A stretch of 64,000 nucleotides of DNA from Candidatus Multivoradales bacterium (GTDB lineage: Bacteria; Acidobacteriota; Thermoanaerobaculia; Multivoradales; J023): NCBI GenBank assembly GCA_965248925.1, contig CBDFLE010000005.1, positions 192,001 to 256,000 of the forward strand, given 5' to 3'. This document shows, piece by piece, positions 41,664 to 49,301 of this stretch; positions within the stretch are counted from its first letter, which is position 1, and every line of letters starts with the position of its first letter. The translations under genes were made by a program, and so were the position numbers. The notes under the pieces are model-generated. The model made no database searches. It was not told where the DNA came from and was given only the letters and a program-made list of their open reading frames with translations.

Positions 41664-41752
41664 TCATGCAACTGAGACCCGCCTACTGGCAAAGACATAG
41701 GTCCGAGTTGCTAGGCAGATATACGGACTTGTCGATACGAGGAGACGGAAAT

Positions 41753-42670
41753 ATGCGGCTATCCAAGGGTGGGTTCGTCTCGGTGTTAATTTTTCTTCTA
41801 GCAGTTCCAGTGTTTGGCGCCGAGATCAGCGTGACGGTCGATGAAGTGGCGTGTTTGCCAATCGACAACAATGGCATCGGCTGGGCGACGGTCGAGAACA
41901 ACATTCCCGAGACTTCTGTGCGGTTCTTCTTCCGCCGTTTGCACGAAGAGGTCGAAGATTTTTACTACGTGGAAATGAACCCGATGGGCGAAGGGCGCTA
42001 TTGGGGGATTTTCCCGCATCCCGAGGACGAGCAGCTCGACCGCTTCAATCTGCGCGACGATGAGCTTCTACAGCAGTTTCGCGACAGCGACCCAGGCGAC
42101 GATGAGGATTACCTCTGGGCTTGGTGGTGGCGGGCCAAGGAAGCCTCCGCTGACCGTGACCCGGACGACAACTTAGATACAGACCGGATTCGCGAGCAGG
42201 CCAGTGTCGGCAAGAGCGAGCCTCGTCATTGGCTGGAGCAGCTTGACGATCCCACGTTCCAGGAATGGCTGGAAGCTCTCGAGAACGAGCCTGCCGAGTT
42301 TTTCGCGGCTGTGTACGATGTCGAGGGCCGGCGTATTGCCCGGTCGAAAACCCGTGTCACCTTGGTGCAAGAGAAGTGTGATGTCGAGCTGACGCCAAAA
42401 CAGGATGGCGAGTCCGAGAACCTCACCATTGGCGAGACCGCCAACTGGCAGAAGGGAGAGAACGTCTTCCACTGGTTATGTGACGGCATCGTTTCGCGGC
42501 TCGATCCTTACGATGTGCTGCGCGAGGATGAGCAGTGTCGCGCTTGCGTCATTGCCTGGTGGAGACGGCCTGGTTTGATCGTGGCGTTGCCGACGGTGGC
42601 TTGTGTTGGCCTCTGTGACGGCATCTTCGATGACGATCCGGGTCTGCCGATCTCCCCTTCGGCACCGTAA
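41753..42670 (+). CDS. Hypothetical exported acidic protein with C-terminal hydrophobic segment
   Basis: SD GGAG before ATG 41753; signal peptide; ends WWRRPGLIVALPTVACVGLCDGIFDDDPGLPISPSAP. Confidence 0.8.
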   Translation: MRLSKGGFVSVLIFLLAVPVFGAEISVTVDEVACLPIDNNGIGWATVENNIPETSVRFFFRRLHEEVEDFYYVEMNPMGEGRYWGIFPHPEDEQLDRFNLRDDELLQQFRDSDPGDDEDYLWAWWWRAKEASADRDPDDNLDTDRIREQASVGKSEPRHWLEQLDDPTFQEWLEALENEPAEFFAAVYDVEGRRIARSKTRVTLVQEKCDVELTPKQDGESENLTIGETANWQKGENVFHWLCDGIVSRLDPYDVLREDEQCRACVIAWWRRPGLIVALPTVACVGLCDGIFDDDPGLPISPSAP

Positions 42671-43071: not shown

Positions 43072-44427
43072 ATGGAACAGCTCGACAGCCTTCTCGCCGC
43101 CGCCGTGGATCTGGCTTGGGGGCCGCCCCTGGTGATCTTGTTGATCGGCGGTGGCCTCTACTTGACCGTACGCTCACGCTTGCTGCCTTTCTTCGGCGCT
43201 GCTCACGGCTTGGCGATTCTCACCGGGCGCTATGATTCTAAGGCTGATCCCGGCCAGCTGAGCCACTTTCAGGCTCTTTCTACCGCGCTGGCTTCGACCA
43301 TTGGTCTGGGCAACATCGGCGGGGTAGCCATCGCTATTACCCAGGGTGGCCCCGGGGCGGTGTTCTGGATGTGGTTGGCGGCTCTCCTCGGCATGGCGAC
43401 CAAGTTCTTCACTTGCACCCTGGCGGTGATGTATCGCGGCCGGGATAGCCAGGGCGTGCTACAGGGCGGGCCGATGTACACAATTGAAGTGGGCCTGGGC
43501 AAGCGGTTCAAACCGCTGGCGATGCTCTTCGCCGCCTGCGGCATGGTCGGGTGCCTAAGTATTTTTCAGAGCAACCAGGTGGCTGAGATCTTGGAGACTA
43601 CCTATCAGCTGCCGCGGTGGGGGACCGGGATCGTCTGCGTCGCTCTGGTCACGGCGGTCACTTTTGGCGGCGTGGCACGGCTCGGCATGGTCGCCAGCCG
43701 CTTAGTGCCTTCGATGTGCGTGCTCTACTTGCTCGGGGCGTTGGCCATCATGGTGCGCAACTTCGAGCTGGTGCCGCAGGTCTTCGGCCAGATTTTCCAC
43801 GACGCCTTCCAGGGCTCGGCGTTGGTCGGCGGCGGCACTGGAGTAGCCTTTGCCCAAGTGGTGAAGATCGGTGTCAAGCGAGCAGCCTTCTCCAATGAGG
43901 CAGGAATTGGTACGGCACCGCTGGCCCACGGGGCGGCCAGGACCAGCGAACCGGTGCGTGAAGGGTTGGTGGCCATGTTGGGCCCCTTCATTGACACGAT
44001 CTTGGTGTGTTCTCTGACCGCCTTCGTGATCCTCTCGACCGGCCTTTGGCAGGGCGAAGCTGGGATCGAGGGAGTTGCTTTGACGGTGCGCGCTTTCGAG
44101 CAGGGCCTGGGAGCTCCGGGAAAGATGTTGTTGGTGCTAGTGGCCTCTATGTTTGGATTCAGCACAATGATTGGTTATGCCTACTACGGCCGCAAGTGCT
44201 TTGCCTATCTATTTGGCGCTGAGTGGGCGCGGATCTACGACCTGTTTTATCTCGTCATGCTCTTTCTCGGCGCACTCTGGAGCATTCGGGTGGTCATCAA
44301 CTTGATGGACACCGCTTTTGCTCTGATGGCGGTGCCAAACATGATCGCCACCCTGATCTTGGCGCCGAAGGTGGTGGCGGCGACTCGCGATTACTTCCGT
44401 CGCCGGCAGGAGAATGCCGTGGGTTGA
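43072..44427 (+). CDS. Alanine/glycine:cation symporter (AGCS/AlsT family)
   Basis: FQALSTALASTIGLGNIGGV, GGPGAVFWMW, GGPMY, FSNEAGIGT, FIDTILVC. Confidence 0.93.
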   Translation: MEQLDSLLAAAVDLAWGPPLVILLIGGGLYLTVRSRLLPFFGAAHGLAILTGRYDSKADPGQLSHFQALSTALASTIGLGNIGGVAIAITQGGPGAVFWMWLAALLGMATKFFTCTLAVMYRGRDSQGVLQGGPMYTIEVGLGKRFKPLAMLFAACGMVGCLSIFQSNQVAEILETTYQLPRWGTGIVCVALVTAVTFGGVARLGMVASRLVPSMCVLYLLGALAIMVRNFELVPQVFGQIFHDAFQGSALVGGGTGVAFAQVVKIGVKRAAFSNEAGIGTAPLAHGAARTSEPVREGLVAMLGPFIDTILVCSLTAFVILSTGLWQGEAGIEGVALTVRAFEQGLGAPGKMLLVLVASMFGFSTMIGYAYYGRKCFAYLFGAEWARIYDLFYLVMLFLGALWSIRVVINLMDTAFALMAVPNMIATLILAPKVVAATRDYFRRRQENAVG

Positions 44428-44450
44428 GCCGGCCACCGCTCGGTGGACGC

Positions 44451-45584
44451 TCAGCGCGGGTTGGAGAGGAAGCGCCGAGCTGCTCCCAGCGCCTCGCGAA
44501 AGTCCTCGCGAGCCCCGCCTTGGACCGCGTCGACCAGTTCGCTGAGGGCATCGCGAGTGGCTTCGTAGACCTCGCCGCGGTGGGGATTGAGGCTTTGGAT
44601 ATCGAAGTAGAGGTCGGGATCTTCGAGCAGCACCGAAAGCGCCGTCGAAGCCTGCCGATTGTAGGTCGTCGAAGCACAGGTGGCGAGCAGTTCGGCGCCC
44701 AGTCCGGAGCGCGTCAGGGCACAGCCAAAGAGCATGCCCGAAAGATGGCCGAGGCCAAGTAGCCAGCCCATGAGGCGGTCATGATGGTCGAAGGGGACCG
44801 GCACCAGGTGGGTGTAGGGATGCTGCAACCAACGCTCGATGCGCTGGCGTTCTAGCAGCGGATCTTGACGACAGGCGAGGACGAAGGTCAGGGGTTCGTA
44901 TGGGGATTTCCCAGGTCCGAACATTGGGTGCAGCGAAGCCAGCTCGACCCCCTGCTCGGTGGCGGCGGCGAAGGAGGGTTCTAGATGGTCTTTGATCGAC
45001 GCAATCTCGATCACCAAGCCGCGCGGCCGGCGAGCGATGACCGCCGCCAGAGCGTCATTCATCTTGCCCAAAGGAACAGAGACCAGAATGGCGTCGTAGA
45101 CGTCCAAGTCGTCGATTTGCTGCAGCGTGGCGAAACGCCCAGGCTGGTGCGGTAGGGGCGCCATCGCCGGGTCGACGATCTCCGAGCTGTGGCCGAGCAG
45201 ACCGCTGAAGCGGTGAAACCACTCGCCCATGTTGCCGGCACCGCCGAGGATTAGCAGGCGATGGCCGCCGGCGGCGCGGAGTTCGATGCCCACCCGATGC
45301 TGACGCTCGATCGAACCGCGCATCACGGCATCGAAAATCGACTCCATCACGTCTTCGGAAATGCCACAGGCTTCGGCGTGCTGCCGCGCTCGCGTGAGCA
45401 CCCGGTCACCAGCCTTTTGGACGACGATCGGGCGCTTGGCGGAGGCTTTTAGGCGGCCCACGTCGCCGGCTAATTCCATCCGCCGACGGATCAACTCGAG
45501 CAGCGAGCGGTCGACTTCGGCAATCTTCTCACGCAGCTTGGCAAGAGGCTGATCCGCGCCGCCTTGTTGGGAGTCTTCTTGCAC
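44451..45584 (-). CDS. tyrA: Bifunctional chorismate mutase / prephenate dehydrogenase
   Basis: LREKIAEVDRSLLELIRRR (AroQ-type CM); ILGGAGNMG Rossmann motif, IASIK, LHPMFGP, HDRLM; GTG start 10 nt after the actin stop. Confidence 0.85.
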   Translation of the reverse strand: MQEDSQQGGADQPLAKLREKIAEVDRSLLELIRRRMELAGDVGRLKASAKRPIVVQKAGDRVLTRARQHAEACGISEDVMESIFDAVMRGSIERQHRVGIELRAAGGHRLLILGGAGNMGEWFHRFSGLLGHSSEIVDPAMAPLPHQPGRFATLQQIDDLDVYDAILVSVPLGKMNDALAAVIARRPRGLVIEIASIKDHLEPSFAAATEQGVELASLHPMFGPGKSPYEPLTFVLACRQDPLLERQRIERWLQHPYTHLVPVPFDHHDRLMGWLLGLGHLSGMLFGCALTRSGLGAELLATCASTTYNRQASTALSVLLEDPDLYFDIQSLNPHRGEVYEATRDALSELVDAVQGGAREDFREALGAARRFLSNPR

Positions 45585-45594
45585 GGTAGAGATC

Positions 45595-46620
45595 CTAGTG
45601 AGCCAACTTCTCCCAGTCGCTTTCGGCGGCGTCCTGAGCCAGGGATAGACCGCCGTCGGAACCGACAAAAACCGGGTCTTTGACCATTCTTACCTTGCCA
45701 CCACCGAGGTTCGATAGGCGATCCTGGAGAGCGGCGCGTAGGCCCGAGATCATCGATGAACCCCCCGACAGGATGACGTTCTGACGTACCTTGGCCTGGT
45801 ACTCGGGCTCGACTCTGGGCAGCAGGTCGAGCATCGCTTCGGCGACCGGCTGCAACAAGCTCTCGCAAGCCGCCCGCATTTCTTTGGTGATGTCGAGCTT
45901 GGTGGGTTTGCCATCGAACGGCGCGGTCACCACCACTTTGGCTTGAGGGGCGCCGACGAAGCCGTGTTGCTCCTTCCAGGTGCGCACCATGTGGATCGAG
46001 AACTGCGCTTTTGGATAACGTTCGGCGATCAAAGTAGCAAGGTACTGGTCTATGGAATCACCGGCAATGGTCAGGGTGCGCTGATCTTCGTCTCCCGGGA
46101 AGTGGCCCATCATGATGCAGAAGTCACTGGTGCCGGCACCGATGTCGATGATCATGGTGTGCAGCAGGGCGTCGAGGCCGTAGGCCACGGCGAAGGGCTC
46201 GGAGACGATCATCAAGCCATCGACCACTCCTTTAAGGGCGCGGCGAATGGGCTCTTGGTTGACCCGCATGGCCTCTGCCGGGACGCCGACCACGGCGCGT
46301 ACCGGCGTTTCTTTGCCGTTGCCTACTCCGGCGAGATCCAGCAGATGGACGAGAATCTCGCGTACCGCCCGCAGGTCCTTCTCTGAGGCCTCCTTGATCA
46401 GGCCGCGCTCCAGGGGCCGGTGCAAGTCAAGCATGGTGCGGTTCTCGAGCGCCTCGGATCCCACCAAAACATCGCGCTTGAGCACTTTGCGCGACACCAT
46501 GTCAACCGGCCAACCGACGTAGCTCTGGACCACATGCCGCTGGCCGTTGGAGGCGGAGATCGAGCTACGCGAGGTGCCGAGGTCGATGCCGACAGTGATT
46601 GGTTCCGTTTTCTTACCCAT
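45595..46620 (-). CDS. mamK: MamK-like actin-family ATPase
   Basis: GIDLGTS, VGWP.D, RPLERG, VVGVPA, VSEPFAVAYGL, IIDIGAGT, PGDEDQ, KEQHGFVG, NVILSGG and C-terminal W..L match MamK as I recall it rather than MreB; orthology not established. Confidence 0.8.
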   Translation of the reverse strand: MGKKTEPITVGIDLGTSRSSISASNGQRHVVQSYVGWPVDMVSRKVLKRDVLVGSEALENRTMLDLHRPLERGLIKEASEKDLRAVREILVHLLDLAGVGNGKETPVRAVVGVPAEAMRVNQEPIRRALKGVVDGLMIVSEPFAVAYGLDALLHTMIIDIGAGTSDFCIMMGHFPGDEDQRTLTIAGDSIDQYLATLIAERYPKAQFSIHMVRTWKEQHGFVGAPQAKVVVTAPFDGKPTKLDITKEMRAACESLLQPVAEAMLDLLPRVEPEYQAKVRQNVILSGGSSMISGLRAALQDRLSNLGGGKVRMVKDPVFVGSDGGLSLAQDAAESDWEKLAH

Positions 46621-46668
46621 AGCAGGTTCCTCATCAGGCGGGCGGCGGATTGCTTACCCGGAGCCGGC

Positions 46669-47670
46669 TTAGCCGGCCTGGTTGACTTTGTGGGCGTAGG
46701 ACTCGATGCCCTTGAAAAGAGCTTCGGCGATGTGCTCCCGGTAACGAGGGCGGCCCAGCAATTCGACTTCGTGGGCATTCGACAGGCACGACACCTCGGC
46801 CAGGATGGCGGGCATCTCGGTTGCTACCAAAACGATGAAAGGGGCGGTCTTGACCCCCCGATTGCGCACTCCGGGTTGGAATTCGTCGATCGAGCGAAAT
46901 AGCGCCTGCTGCACGCTCTCGGCGAGGCCTCGCGATTGGTTCTGGCGGACATCGGCGTAGATTCCCTCCAGCAAGCGCCGCATGTCGGTCAGGGTATAGC
47001 CGGACGCTCGGTTCTCTTGCTGGGCCAGGTGACTGAGCGCTGGGTCGCTGGTGGGGCCGAGAAAGTAGGTCTCGACACCGCGGACGTCGCGGGTCTCGAT
47101 CCAGTTCAGATGGATGGAGACGAAGATGTCGGCGTGCTGCTGGTTGGCCAGGTCGACCCGTTCTTTGAGTGATACCGAGTGGTCTTGGTCGCGGGTCAGC
47201 AGGACTTCGTACTTGGCCTCAAGTAGCCTGCGCTGCAACCGCTGAGCGATGTCCAGCGCGACGTCCTTTTCGATCAAGGGGCCACCGATGCCAGCTCCGT
47301 GGTCGTCGCCACCGTGCCCCGGGTCAAGCACGATGCGGCGAATTGCCAGCGGCAGCACCTTGGGGTCGATCGGCCGCGGAGCCGAGAACGTGGGCTGCTG
47401 CAACGGCATTTCGATCGCCACAGCATTGGCGGTCGACGGAGGCCGGCCAGCGAGTGCCCCCGAGGTGTCCGCCGGAGTGCTCGGCAACAGCAGCTGAGCG
47501 ACCGAAATACCAGCGAAGGGCAAGGCAAAGACGAACGCCGCGCCCAGCCGCCGGCTGGAGCGGCGAGCGGTCTTGCGCAGTAACCGTTGGCGGCGCTCAT
47601 CGGCGCTCTCTAGATTGCTAACTACCGCCTGGGCGAGAAGCTTGCGCTTGATCTCTCGGTCTCTACTCAT
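46669..47670 (-). CDS. N-acetylmuramoyl-L-alanine amidase (Amidase_3) with N-terminal TM anchor
   Basis: VLDPGHGG, EKDVALDIA, LTRD, FVSIHLN, GVETYF, PAILAEV; basic N-tail followed by a TM helix. Confidence 0.92.
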   Translation of the reverse strand: MSRDREIKRKLLAQAVVSNLESADERRQRLLRKTARRSSRRLGAAFVFALPFAGISVAQLLLPSTPADTSGALAGRPPSTANAVAIEMPLQQPTFSAPRPIDPKVLPLAIRRIVLDPGHGGDDHGAGIGGPLIEKDVALDIAQRLQRRLLEAKYEVLLTRDQDHSVSLKERVDLANQQHADIFVSIHLNWIETRDVRGVETYFLGPTSDPALSHLAQQENRASGYTLTDMRRLLEGIYADVRQNQSRGLAESVQQALFRSIDEFQPGVRNRGVKTAPFIVLVATEMPAILAEVSCLSNAHEVELLGRPRYREHIAEALFKGIESYAHKVNQAG

Positions 47671-47795
47671 CCTTTGCTCACCGCTGGGGCTACGACTCGA
47701 ACAATCTCAATGGGTTTTTCGGCGCCCACTTATTCCCCTACCGTCGGGGCGCACATTACCCCTTGTCGATATGGGCGAAAGAGCATGCTAACAGA

Positions 47796-47916
47796 AAACC
47801 GCTGCGGAAACCGCTGCGGCTGAAACGGTGTCTTGATCGCAATTTACGGCCCAAGGCGAGGGCGGGGATAATCTGACAAGCGACTCGACAGCGGGACTCA
47901 ACGGCGGGACTCAACG
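47796..47916. repeat. Short direct tandem repeats upstream of the amidase-actin operon
   Basis: AAACCGCTGCGG x2 (47796-47819); GACTCRACRGCGG x2.7 (47882-47916). Confidence 0.6.
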
Positions 47917-47919
47917 CAG

Positions 47920-47945
47920 AACAGCCCGCCGACTTGCGGGCTGTT
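47920..47945. terminator. Hairpin downstream of the DUF4126 gene
   Basis: AACAGCCCGC-CGACTT-GCGGGCTGTT perfect 10-bp stem. Confidence 0.55.
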
Positions 47946-47981
47946 GTCGGGGTGTTTGAAAGACTCGTTCCAGCAGCCGTC

Positions 47982-48596
47982 CTAGGCGGCGGTCTCAAGG
48001 GTGGCTTCAACGGCGGTTTCGACGCTACTGCGGCGTCGTAGCAGCCTGCTGGCGACGAAGTAGATCAGGGCCAGAGCGGCGACTAGCGCCACCAACGGTA
48101 CGAACACCGCCAGCAGCGAGAAGAGCACCGAGGCGGCAGCTTCGCCAGTGGATACCAGCGGGTTGCCGAAGCCGCCGGTGGTCAAGGCCGAAGCGTGACG
48201 GGTCAAGCTGGTCATTCCCTGGATGGAAGCTGCCAGACCGCCGCCGCCGATGATCGCCATCGACCAGCCGAGCATCGGATTCAGCTCGCCGACCTGGGAA
48301 GCGGTGGCTACCACTCCGGCGACCACCGCGGCGGGAGTCGCCACGGTGTCCAGGAGATTGTCGATCAGCGGCAAGTAGTAAGCACCGATCTCTAGAGCGG
48401 TGGCGCTAGCCAGGGCGATCAGGGCCGGGGTCGAGCCGATCCACTCGAAGCTGCTAGCCAGCGACAGGTAGCCGGCTTTCGTAGCGATGCTCATCACCAG
48501 CATCGGTACGAAGATCCGAAATCCGCAAGCGGCGCTCAAGCCGAGGCCGACGGCGACGCTGAGCAGGGTTCCCATGAGTTCAGGCTGAGTGTCCAT
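47982..48596 (-). CDS. DUF4126 family membrane protein
   Basis: GLGLSAACGFRIFVP, LEIGAYYLPLIDNLLD, TTGGFGNPLVST.E. Confidence 0.85.
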   Translation of the reverse strand: MDTQPELMGTLLSVAVGLGLSAACGFRIFVPMLVMSIATKAGYLSLASSFEWIGSTPALIALASATALEIGAYYLPLIDNLLDTVATPAAVVAGVVATASQVGELNPMLGWSMAIIGGGGLAASIQGMTSLTRHASALTTGGFGNPLVSTGEAAASVLFSLLAVFVPLVALVAALALIYFVASRLLRRRSSVETAVEATLETAA

Positions 48597-48755
48597 CAAA
48601 AACCTCCTGGACTTGCCGCGGGCCGATACGACCTCGCATATGCCATTATACGCGGCTGGATTCGCTACTATTCGCTCGCCGGAGCATGATTCTTCGCCTC
48701 ACAGTCTGTTGGCAACATCCGTCAATCCCAGCCCTGGACCCGCGGAGACACCGAT

Positions 48756-49301
48756 TTGCGCTTCTTATTGAGAATTTCACGCGCCATCGACCGGCTCAAT
48801 GAGCGCCTCGGCCGGGCGGTGAGCTGGCTGCTGCTGGCGATGGTGCTGATCGGCGCCTACAATGCGGCGGTGCGCTATTTGGGGCGCTTCATGGGCTGGA
48901 ATTTGAGCTCCAACCTCTACCTTGAGTTGCAATGGTATCTGTTTGCCATGGTCTTCTTGCTCGGTGCCTCCTACACCCTGCGCGGTGGTGGGCATGTACG
49001 GGTGGATGTGCTCTACGCTCGATTGTCGCGCCGCGCACAGGCCTGGATCAACATCCTCGGTAGTGTGTTCTTGCTGCTACCGTTCACCGCTTTCACGTTT
49101 TTCTTGTCGCTGCCCTCGGTGCGCAATTCGTGGCGGGTTCTGGAGGGCTCCCCGGATCCGGGAGGCTTGCCGCGGTATCCGATCAAATCGATGCTGCTGG
49201 TGGGGCTCGGGTTGCTCTTCTTGCAGGGCCTGTCGGAACTGTTCAAGGAGGTGGTGGTGCTGCGCGGCCACCCGCTCGGGGACGGGGAGGTTGGCGAGTG
49301 A
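48756..49301 (+). CDS. dctQ: TRAP transporter small permease
   Basis: Four TM helices; ELQWYLF, HVRVDVLY, EGSPDPGGLP. Confidence 0.9.
   Translation: MRFLLRISRAIDRLNERLGRAVSWLLLAMVLIGAYNAAVRYLGRFMGWNLSSNLYLELQWYLFAMVFLLGASYTLRGGGHVRVDVLYARLSRRAQAWINILGSVFLLLPFTAFTFFLSLPSVRNSWRVLEGSPDPGGLPRYPIKSMLLVGLGLLFLQGLSELFKEVVVLRGHPLGDGEVGE

Follow-up and report, generated by a model that had tools for sequence, protein, structure and literature searches.

A MamK-family actin and a peptidoglycan amidase form a conserved gene pair with a predicted contact through the amidase's N-terminal tail

On the minus strand of a 64,000-nucleotide stretch of DNA from Candidatus Multivoradales bacterium (GenBank assembly GCA_965248925.1, contig CBDFLE010000005.1, positions 192,001 to 256,000; hereafter the window, in whose coordinates positions are given), a gene for a peptidoglycan amidase stands directly upstream of a gene for an actin-like ATPase which, judging by its sequence, belongs to the MamK family. 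We found that this gene pair is real, strongly conserved, and outside the families as which it is usually annotated. For its function we lean modestly, on computation only, towards a two-gene module in which a MamK-family filament holds or positions an activator-dependent, bitopic amidase.

Open reading frames (ORFs) and Pfam matches place four genes in a row on this strand, namely DUF4126, Amidase_3, the actin-fold gene and tyrA. An initial annotation, made from the DNA letters, had described an amidase, a 48-bp gap and a 341-residue actin, and this order is borne out by the reading frames, with the amidase stop codon TAA (46671-46669) followed by 48 bases, including GAGGAA, and then by the actin ATG at 46620. 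Scanning positions 44200-48800 for promoters and terminators, we found no promoter-like or terminator-like site in the amidase-actin spacer and nothing informative inside the pair. The parts of the module are as follows.

46669..47670, minus strand: gene for the presumed bitopic peptidoglycan amidase, 333 aa (ORF; Amidase_3, 161 bits, residues 113-323; AlphaFold2 (AF2) model with a mean predicted local distance difference test score (pLDDT) of 86.6)
47605..47655, minus strand: amidase codons 6-22, conserved, presumably cytoplasmic motif, in the window EIKRKLLAQAVVSNLES (consensus K-R-R-L-L-R-x-A-V-x-[DE]-N-[LV])
47485..47547, minus strand: amidase codons 42-62, uncharged hydrophobic stretch and presumed membrane helix, with an Arg/Lys run before it (sequence and alignment)
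47341..47484, minus strand: amidase codons 63-110, variable, probably disordered and periplasmic linker (pLDDT 51-64, no secondary structure)
46702..47334, minus strand: amidase codons 113-323, Amidase_3 catalytic domain (invariant H119, E134, H187 and E292)
46930..47058, minus strand: amidase codons 205-247, regulatory insert of the AmiA/B/C type (blocking helix with invariant E219; interaction helix with L233, L234, I237, Y238 and V241)
46621..46668, minus strand: amidase-actin spacer, 48 bases (GAGGAA 8 bases before the ATG)
45595..46620, minus strand: gene for the MamK-family actin-like ATPase, 341 aa, of the amidase-linked subfamily (NCBIfam, PDB match and tree)

The actin was assigned by model scores, solved relatives and motifs. 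The NCBIfam MamK model (NF040964) matches it at 377.3 bits (E = 5.9e-113; 377.6 bits in the genome search), somewhat under the curated cut-off of 400 bits, and the other models score far lower without reaching their cut-offs: 222.8 bits for BeeR (NF053558; cut-off 530) and 46.7 and 64.8 bits for the MreB models TIGR00904 and PRK13927 (cut-offs 365.75 and 293). DnaK and HscA models give weak matches of about 20-30 bits. The closest solved structures are 5jyg, 5ljv and 5ljw at 271-274 bits (274 for 5jyg, over query residues 7-339), followed by 8r2n at 172 bits and then by MreB at about 39 bits; we take the first three to be MamK and 8r2n to be BeeR, the PDB titles reading 'actin-like ATPase' and 'actin family protein'. 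All of the motifs from which the initial annotation had argued for MamK and against MreB are present in the translation (GIDLGTS, VGWPVD, RPLERG, GVPA, VSEPFAVAYGL, DIGAGT, PGDEDQ and KEQHGFVG), and the MamK strings that it had cited can be seen in the alignment to the MamK of the PDB, as vvsepfmvgygl, digagt, pgpedq and keqfsfvg. In the alignment of actins, the ATPase motif columns D13, G15, E141, D159 and G161 are invariant. Model scores and best solved relatives agree, and by sequence the protein is a MamK-family actin, not an MreB, with no chance resemblance. This amounts to a correction of public annotation, in which most of the homologues are labelled 'rod shape-determining protein MreB'.

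The source genome (7.98 Mb, 6 contigs, 96.9% complete) has a separate rod-shape system, a possibility that had been raised for checking: a true mreB (500 bits) with an adjoining mreC lies on another contig (C6). Five of the five other carriers tested, from other lineages, also have a true MreB, so that the amidase-linked actin is an addition and not a replacement. Inside the window we found no mam or mre genes beyond the MamK-type actin itself, in keeping with the earlier remark that mreC, mreD and other mam or mms genes are missing there. Across the whole genome, the MamI and MamQ models gave no match, and the MamP model gave a single domain match of 40 bits against a cut-off of 300. As a positive control, the MamI and MamQ models were run on five genomes of another phylum with high-scoring MamK; two of these (G723 and G413) returned MamI at 78 bits and MamQ at 119 and 105 bits, and in G723 the matches share a contig with two MamK copies that are a few kb away. 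Since the models detect magnetosome clusters in these controls, the blank in the source genome is meaningful, and the actin lies outside any magnetosome cluster, just as the initial annotation had maintained.

The association between the two genes recurs across phyla. A scan of one genome per species yielded 80 loci with actins 63-73% identical to that of the window (clade 1), in records titled Thermoanaerobaculia, Holophagales, Terriglobia, Binatia, Methylomirabilota/Rokubacteria, Entotheonellaceae, Eisenbacteria, 'delta proteobacterium' and others. In 79/80 of these, tblastn with the window proteins placed the amidase directly upstream on the same strand, the sole exception (L049) being a locus that begins with the actin at base 3. 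A protein search of the full library returned 1041 proteins at E <= 0.001, among which the window group is collapsed to one 50%-identity representative, P0121, alongside numerous further groups of MamK-like proteins. The MamK cut-off is passed by 6 of the 20 representatives scanned, with P0121 scoring 392.7 bits and P0125, the representative of the sister clade, 425.2 bits. P0125 is 52% identical to the window actin, and NCBI gives one protein of its cluster the name 'MamK family actin-like protein [Nitrospira sp.]'. Among 80 metagenome loci of P0125 relatives (clade 2), the amidase is directly upstream in 73, and in the 7 exceptions the DNA upstream of the actin is no longer than 333 bases. 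Over both clades, the pair is kept in all loci with enough upstream DNA (152/152).

The other MamK-like actins sampled show no such partner nearby. A comparison sample of 401 genomes of another phylum contained 21 MamK-like loci in 17 genomes; an amidase is present in three of them, which are the three that group with clades 1 and 2, and none was detected within 1.5 kb of the remaining 18. Within a 401-genome sample of the window's own phylum, 30 genomes from 18 of the 228 genera have a match at E <= 1e-40, concentrated in the order and class of the window. Crude ORF clustering over 81 regions revealed no third widely shared gene beyond the amidase and the actin.

Two trees bear on the history of the pair. 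Tree 1, a quick IQ-TREE run on 90 rows with support from the Shimodaira-Hasegawa-like approximate likelihood ratio test (SH-aLRT) only, was rooted on the genome's own MreB and contained the window, 18 loci hand-picked for taxonomic spread, MreB and 70 of the 150 representatives, namely those matched over 300 or more query residues; the remaining 80, which are fragments, were left out. Its amidase-linked rows form one clade with 100% SH-aLRT, which also holds the long-branch P0138; P0125 is sister to this clade (93%), and P0144, which scores 463 bits to the PDB MamK, falls in a separate clade (99%). Tree 2 had 64 rows, comprising the window, 11 clade 1 and 16 clade 2 chosen loci, 20 of the 21 other-phylum loci (L190, which is split, was left out), 15 representatives and MreB. 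Here all 31 amidase-linked actins lie on one side of a single branch (SH-aLRT 90), and the amidase state needs one change on the tree, compared with a mean of 14.2 after shuffling and 0/500 shuffles as low; L188 and L194, which adjoin MamI and MamQ, group with P0144 (98%). Taken as gene histories, the trees say that the link to the amidase has a single origin, in a lineage distinct from that of magnetosome MamK. They resolve the shallower forks only, with the amidase-linked actins as a separate clade beside other MamK-like groups; an ancestral role of MamK, which the initial annotation thought possible, is not readable from them.

The actin trees also disagree in places with the taxonomy of the record titles, L030, L037, L057, L061, L068, L075 and L076 being among the rows concerned. 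Eisenbacteria and 'delta proteobacterium' rows are nested in Binatia rows, a 'Proteobacteria' row pairs with Entotheonellaceae, and a Rokubacteria row sits with Holophagales and Terriglobia; branches inside the amidase-linked clade are short. This mismatch suggests either horizontal transfer of the module or unreliable labels of metagenome-assembled genomes (MAGs). Among the wider MamK-like set, P0181 (768 aa) is a natural fusion in which a complete FtsZ (Tubulin and FtsZ_C, residues 4-307) is followed by a MamK-like actin domain at the C-terminus, and it groups in tree 1 with the PDB-type MamK representative P0144. Fourteen representatives (P0133, P0135, P0137, P0139-P0143, P0145, P0148-P0151 and P0153) make up one clade with 99% support and have N-terminal extensions of about 190-900 residues, Pfam being blank in the 8 scanned. 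Tandem MamK-like gene pairs occur at G625:C12:35725-38342, G683:C1:2982895-2985700 and G734:C23:213271-216029; both copies in G625 score about 492-494 bits, and MamI has no match in G625 and G683.

The partner of the actin has the marks of an intact enzyme of a regulated type. Pfam finds Amidase_3 only (PF01520; 161.3 bits, residues 113-323) and no AMIN or LysM domain, as had been noticed from the sequence, and the NCBIfam equivalog cut-offs lie well above its scores (AmiA 108/400, AmiC 100/700 and AmiB 80/532). In an alignment of 58 sequences (the window and 57 of 79 loci, the rest missed by the ORF filter or cut by a contig end), H119, E134, H187 and E292 are invariant and the zinc-ligand positions are kept in 58/58. 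Residues 205-247 match AmiB (3ne8), AmiA (8c2o) and AmiC (4bin) without a break, whereas against amidases that lack the regulatory insert (5emi, 4rn7, 1jwq and 7rag) the match splits at this point; the AF2 model has helices at 210-220 and 227-236 within the insert. Functional residues align with those of E. coli AmiA as listed below.

H119, E134 and H187, aligned to AmiA His65, Glu80 and His133: zinc ligands (alignment to 8c2o; PMC10268282)
N189, aligned to AmiA Asp135: fifth ligand, released upon activation (alignment; PMC10268282)
E219, invariant, aligned to AmiA Glu167: 'latch' by which the blocking helix is held to the zinc (alignment; PMC10268282)
L233, L234, I237, Y238 and V241, aligned to AmiA Leu184, Leu185, Val188, Leu189 and Leu192: hydrophobic face of the interaction helix, which binds the EnvC LytM domain (alignment; PMC10268282)

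The amidase is accordingly expected to be autoinhibited in the manner of AmiA/B/C, off by default and in need of a periplasmic LytM-type activator, and with an enzyme of this type, placement by the actin is more likely than direct activation by it. The genome has four Amidase_3 genes in all; apart from this one, they encode a 552-aa protein, a 641-aa LysM protein and a 212-aa protein.

The long basic N-terminal tail of the amidase that had been pointed out before the membrane segment is there: residues 1-41 hold 14 K/R and 5 D/E, residues 42-62 are uncharged and hydrophobic, and a hydrophobic block occupies this position in all rows of the amidase alignment. The following linker (residues 63-110) varies among homologues in both length and sequence. 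AF2 models a single helix over residues 2-59, a low-confidence unstructured section up to residue 111 and then the domain. By the positive-inside rule, the tail would be cytoplasmic, with one membrane helix and a periplasmic catalytic domain.

The tail, unlike the linker, contains a conserved motif. It reads K8-R-R-L-L12-R-x-A15-V16-x-[DE]-N19-[LV] in clade 1, with K8 and N19 at least 90% conserved among the 58 sequences, and [KR]-x-x-[IM]-L-[RQ]-x-V-Y-E-[ED]-N-L in clade 2. The search pattern was written after viewing the alignment, and the per-position tallies are conditional on it; it gave one match per locus in 64/80 clade 1 and 51/80 clade 2 loci, always at the amidase N-terminus and, in clade 1, always 963-1284 bases before the actin, with no other match over 1.3 Mb in all six frames. 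Of the 21 other-phylum MamK-like loci, the pattern matches only the three with an amidase, and within 1.5 kb of the 18 MamK-like loci without an amidase the same strict pattern, over these short flanks, found nothing.

Complex prediction, which the initial annotation had proposed as a check, puts this motif on the actin. The actin was modelled with amidase residues 1-45, using our own alignments and with the tail as the scored partner, and the interaction prediction score from aligned errors (ipSAE) was 0.85, 0.83 and 0.85 in the three runs, as against 0.01 for the best of three controls. The mark applied to this score is reached by 58/80 solved complexes and by 2/110 mismatched pairs, counts that are rough here since our own alignments were used. 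The runs had at least 91% of contacts in common, with a partner pLDDT of at least 71. Predicted contacts involve tail residues 4, 7-20 and 22-23 and actin residues 123, 136-139, 143, 147, 150, 152-153, 172-174, 327, 330-331, 335 and 338-339; among the closest pairs are N19 with 136-138, A15 with 137, 139, 143 and 327, V16 with 331, 335, 338 and 339, L12 with 327, 330 and 331, and K8 with 147 and 330. The model thus lends good computational support to a binding of the tail motif to the actin, which stays a prediction. In the register that we assume, Y147 is presumably actin Tyr143 and residues 172-174 Glu167-Tyr169, with the C-terminal helix as a third wall, so that the predicted site would be the hydrophobic groove between subdomains IA and IIA. 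Helical peptides in this groove have been solved in ParM-ParR and crenactin-arcadin-2 (PMC5173319). Tail position 16 is V in clade 1 and Y in clade 2, and at the predicted contacts of this position, 331 and 335, the actin has A and D in clade 1 and M and Y in clade 2; this agrees with co-evolution, as a single event.

These results suggest a general picture of the pair, in which the tail motif would dock as a helix into the IA/IIA groove of the actin, and the cytoplasmic polymer would decide the membrane location of an amidase that is autoinhibited. A periplasmic activator would then release the enzyme, such that peptidoglycan is cut where the polymer has placed it, septum splitting or a related local remodelling of the wall being the likely setting. 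We infer that the actin of this pair polymerises, since its nucleotide-binding motifs are invariant and its relatives polymerise. Of the earlier proposal that a filament positions the hydrolase through its tail, the tail now has a conserved motif that is predicted on the actin, and the positioning itself is what we infer. A bolder form of this picture, which we hold only tentatively and think rather doubtful as a whole, is that the pair represents a third bacterial actin-based wall system beside the MreB elongasome and the FtsA divisome, of old and single origin and spread over many phyla. Here a dynamic MamK-type filament would grip the amidase helix in its barbed-end groove, as in ParM-ParR, the enzyme would be carried along the membrane or confined there as the filament grows or treadmills, and a cytomotive filament would thereby place the cleavage.

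Several observations weigh against a positioning filament. The groove is a tentative assignment, made by aligning motifs to actin numbering. The contact residues show no clear excess of conservation over the other actin positions, identity with the window protein being 0.73 at contacts versus 0.65 elsewhere in clade 1 and 0.44 versus 0.49 in clade 2, and F143, Y147 and G172 among them are common to all MamK-like proteins. The high ipSAE may partly owe to likeness to the solved ParM-ParR and crenactin-arcadin-2 complexes. In actin-like filaments, moreover, the IA/IIA groove is occupied by the next subunit (PMC5173319), so that the tail may have room only on a monomer or at the end of a filament, and binding of this kind may serve capping, nucleation or sequestration as well as positioning. 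A role at division is suggested only by the type of amidase and by third genes (below) that are absent in the window.

The occupied groove leads to a reading in which the coupling runs the other way, and the amidase tail would be a membrane adaptor that caps, nucleates or sequesters the actin, so that a wall enzyme controls or anchors a filament with another main task, such as organising the cytoplasm or pushing the membrane. MamK-type actins are not known to bind membranes themselves, and by our mapping the predicted site is the groove that the next subunit fills in filaments. ParR and arcadin-2 bind the same groove (PMC5173319). This account, which needs the same contact as the positioning module and overlaps with it, strikes us as unlikely, in that the partner is always a catalytically intact amidase (zinc ligands in 58/58) and no mere anchor, and no other gene is conserved with the pair. 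Less probable again is a gate operated from the inside, whereby the nucleotide or polymer state of the actin would switch the amidase on through the membrane helix, as FtsEX-EnvC couples cytoplasmic ATP to AmiA/B. The blocking-helix E219 is kept and the amidase is expected to be off by default, and the actin ATPase motifs D13, G15, E141, D159 and G161 are invariant; yet the linker, with some 50 disordered and highly variable residues between the membrane helix and the catalytic domain, is ill suited to passing on a conformational change, and the interaction helix retains the hydrophobic face for a LytM activator, pointing to control from the periplasm.

Two further accounts appear very improbable to us. 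The N-terminal region could be a long export signal for the twin-arginine translocation (Tat) or general secretory (Sec) route, with the actin-fold ATPase as a dedicated, Hsp70-like escort or chaperone of the pre-protein. E. coli AmiA and AmiC are Tat substrates, the window sequence SRR-LGAAFVF before the hydrophobic stretch resembles a twin-arginine motif, and Hsp70s share the actin fold, with weak matches to the DnaK and HscA models. However, the paired arginines are not conserved, many homologues having TRW, ARW or EITLLR there, the conserved part is a far N-terminal helix of a kind seldom conserved in signal peptides, and the MamK model scores 377 bits against some 20-30 for DnaK and HscA. 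Equally hard to credit is that the genes are neighbours for expression only, their products not touching, or that the actin is a second MreB or a true magnetosome MamK. Public annotation does mostly read 'rod shape-determining protein MreB', and NCBI does call a sister-clade member a 'MamK family actin-like protein'. An expression-only pairing sits poorly with 152/152 loci and a conserved tail motif, and MreB with scores of 47-65 bits against cut-offs of 293-366, in a genome with its own mreB-mreC and with MreB in 5/5 other carriers. The failure to find MamI and MamQ in a 96.9% complete genome, by models that were positive in two control genomes, argues against a magnetosome role. The positioning module remains the account towards which we lean.

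The genes that flank the pair differ by lineage and are housekeeping genes (S1, LigA, UbiD, M24 peptidase and tyrA). In the window they are the following.

47982-48599, minus strand: DUF4126 gene (Pfam), adjoining the amidase upstream
44451..45584, minus strand: tyrA, chorismate mutase fused to prephenate dehydrogenase, a neighbour outside the module (Pfam CM_2, PDH_N and PDH_C; NCBIfam PRK11199)

DUF4126 precedes the pair in 9/80 clade 1 loci and tyrA follows it in 14/80, so both are lineage-specific neighbours, and the tyrA that the initial annotation had listed after the actin is part of such a lineage-specific arrangement. The start of tyrA is itself ambiguous. The actin stop codon TAG (45597-45595) is followed by 10 bases and then by a GTG in the tyrA frame (45584), which lacks an obvious ribosome-binding site, while the longest tyrA ORF starts at TTG 45668; homologues align from about residue 31-42 of this long form. 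The 10-bp gap between actin and tyrA that had been reported therefore stands for the GTG start and gives way, for the TTG start, to a 74-base overlap with the actin gene.

Other lineages have a different gene 3' of the actin. In 14-16 Thermoanaerobaculia-type loci the product of this third gene measures about 460-545 aa and has a PilZ (cyclic di-GMP-binding) domain at its N-terminus, as found in 5/5 members tested, and in one Holophagales MAG the product has a SPOR domain at its C-terminus.

L064:7068-8657, L083:7036-8454, L072:7035-8408, L047:5284-6711 and L067:3372-5009: third genes with a PilZ domain
L077:7014-8609 (Holophagales MAG): third gene with a C-terminal SPOR domain

These two types of protein are confined to subgroups and are mutually dissimilar, the window having tyrA in their place, and Pfam detected no AMIN domain in the third-gene proteins at E <= 1. 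SPOR domains bind amidase-processed peptidoglycan (PMC7822825), and the SPOR gene hints at a septal or otherwise amidase-trimmed wall. Elsewhere in the window, an ORF of 334 aa at 41666-42670 on the plus strand, of no assigned family, is acidic and Trp-rich with a hydrophobic N-terminal stretch; a homologue with 50% identity occurs near the module in L014 too.

How bacteria place the cutting of their wall is much less understood than how they place its building. The known routes for placing hydrolases are periplasmic activators (EnvC and NlpD) and, in one case, a bactofilin. If the positioning module is correct, an amidase coupled straight to a nucleotide-driven actin would represent a way of placing hydrolysis that is new in principle, and it would give a function to widespread 'orphan' MamK-like actins of non-magnetotactic bacteria. 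By record titles, the module occurs in abundant and poorly studied lineages of soil and sediment, including Thermoanaerobaculia, Binatia, Methylomirabilota and relatives of Entotheonella. It also offers a defined, predicted contact between peptide and groove, with K8, L12 and N19 on the tail and D330 on the actin.

A literature search, with supplementary files outside its reach, found no description of a pair of an amidase and a MamK-like actin. The actin is closest to Magnetospirillum MamK (5JYG, 5LJV, 5LJW; NF040964), being of the same broad subfamily by a full-length 274-bit match, by the shared VSEPF..YGL, DIGAGT, PG.EDQ and KEQ..FVG and by a score far above those of the MreB and BeeR models, and it differs in scoring under the cut-off, in lying in a separate clade from P0144, in the absence of mam genes and in having a peptidoglycan amidase as its partner. 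In MreB-RodZ and FtsA-FtsN, the contacts are at other actin subdomains. These systems resemble the present pair in that actins organise wall enzymes via the cytoplasmic parts of bitopic proteins (FtsA-FtsN: PMC7613929). They are unlike it in directing synthases and in belonging to other actin families, and the genome keeps MreB-MreC as well. ParM-ParR and crenactin-arcadin-2 (4A62, 5LY3; PMC5173319) have in common with it a short partner helix in the IA/IIA groove, here a predicted one; their partners are DNA-binding proteins or soluble regulators, and here the helix would belong to a membrane enzyme.

Saltatorellin and BeeR, MamK-related actins of non-magnetotactic bacteria with roles outside magnetosomes, both polymerise (bioRxiv 10.1101/817700 and PMC11929497, respectively). 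The window actin scores 223 bits against the BeeR cut-off of 530, and an amidase is mentioned in neither text, the word 'amidase' being absent from the saltatorellin preprint, the BeeR paper and a 2023 mBio study of MamK orthologues as far as their text was available. The nearest functional analogue that we found joins the bactofilin BacA to the hydrolase LmdC. Unlike the present pair, it consists of a nucleotide-free bactofilin and an M23 endopeptidase rather than an amidase. Reportedly, the cytoplasmic polymer is coupled there to a membrane-anchored hydrolase via the hydrolase's cytoplasmic tail, again in a conserved gene pair. The cooperation between bactofilin and LmdC is described in Hyphomonas neptunium (PMC10945521). 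Finally, FtsEX-EnvC-AmiA/AmiB of E. coli also joins an autoinhibited catalytic domain with a cytoplasmic ATPase linked to periplasmic amidase action (PMC10268282); AmiA and AmiB are soluble, periplasmic and controlled by EnvC, whereas the amidase described here would span the membrane and carry the cytoplasmic contact itself.

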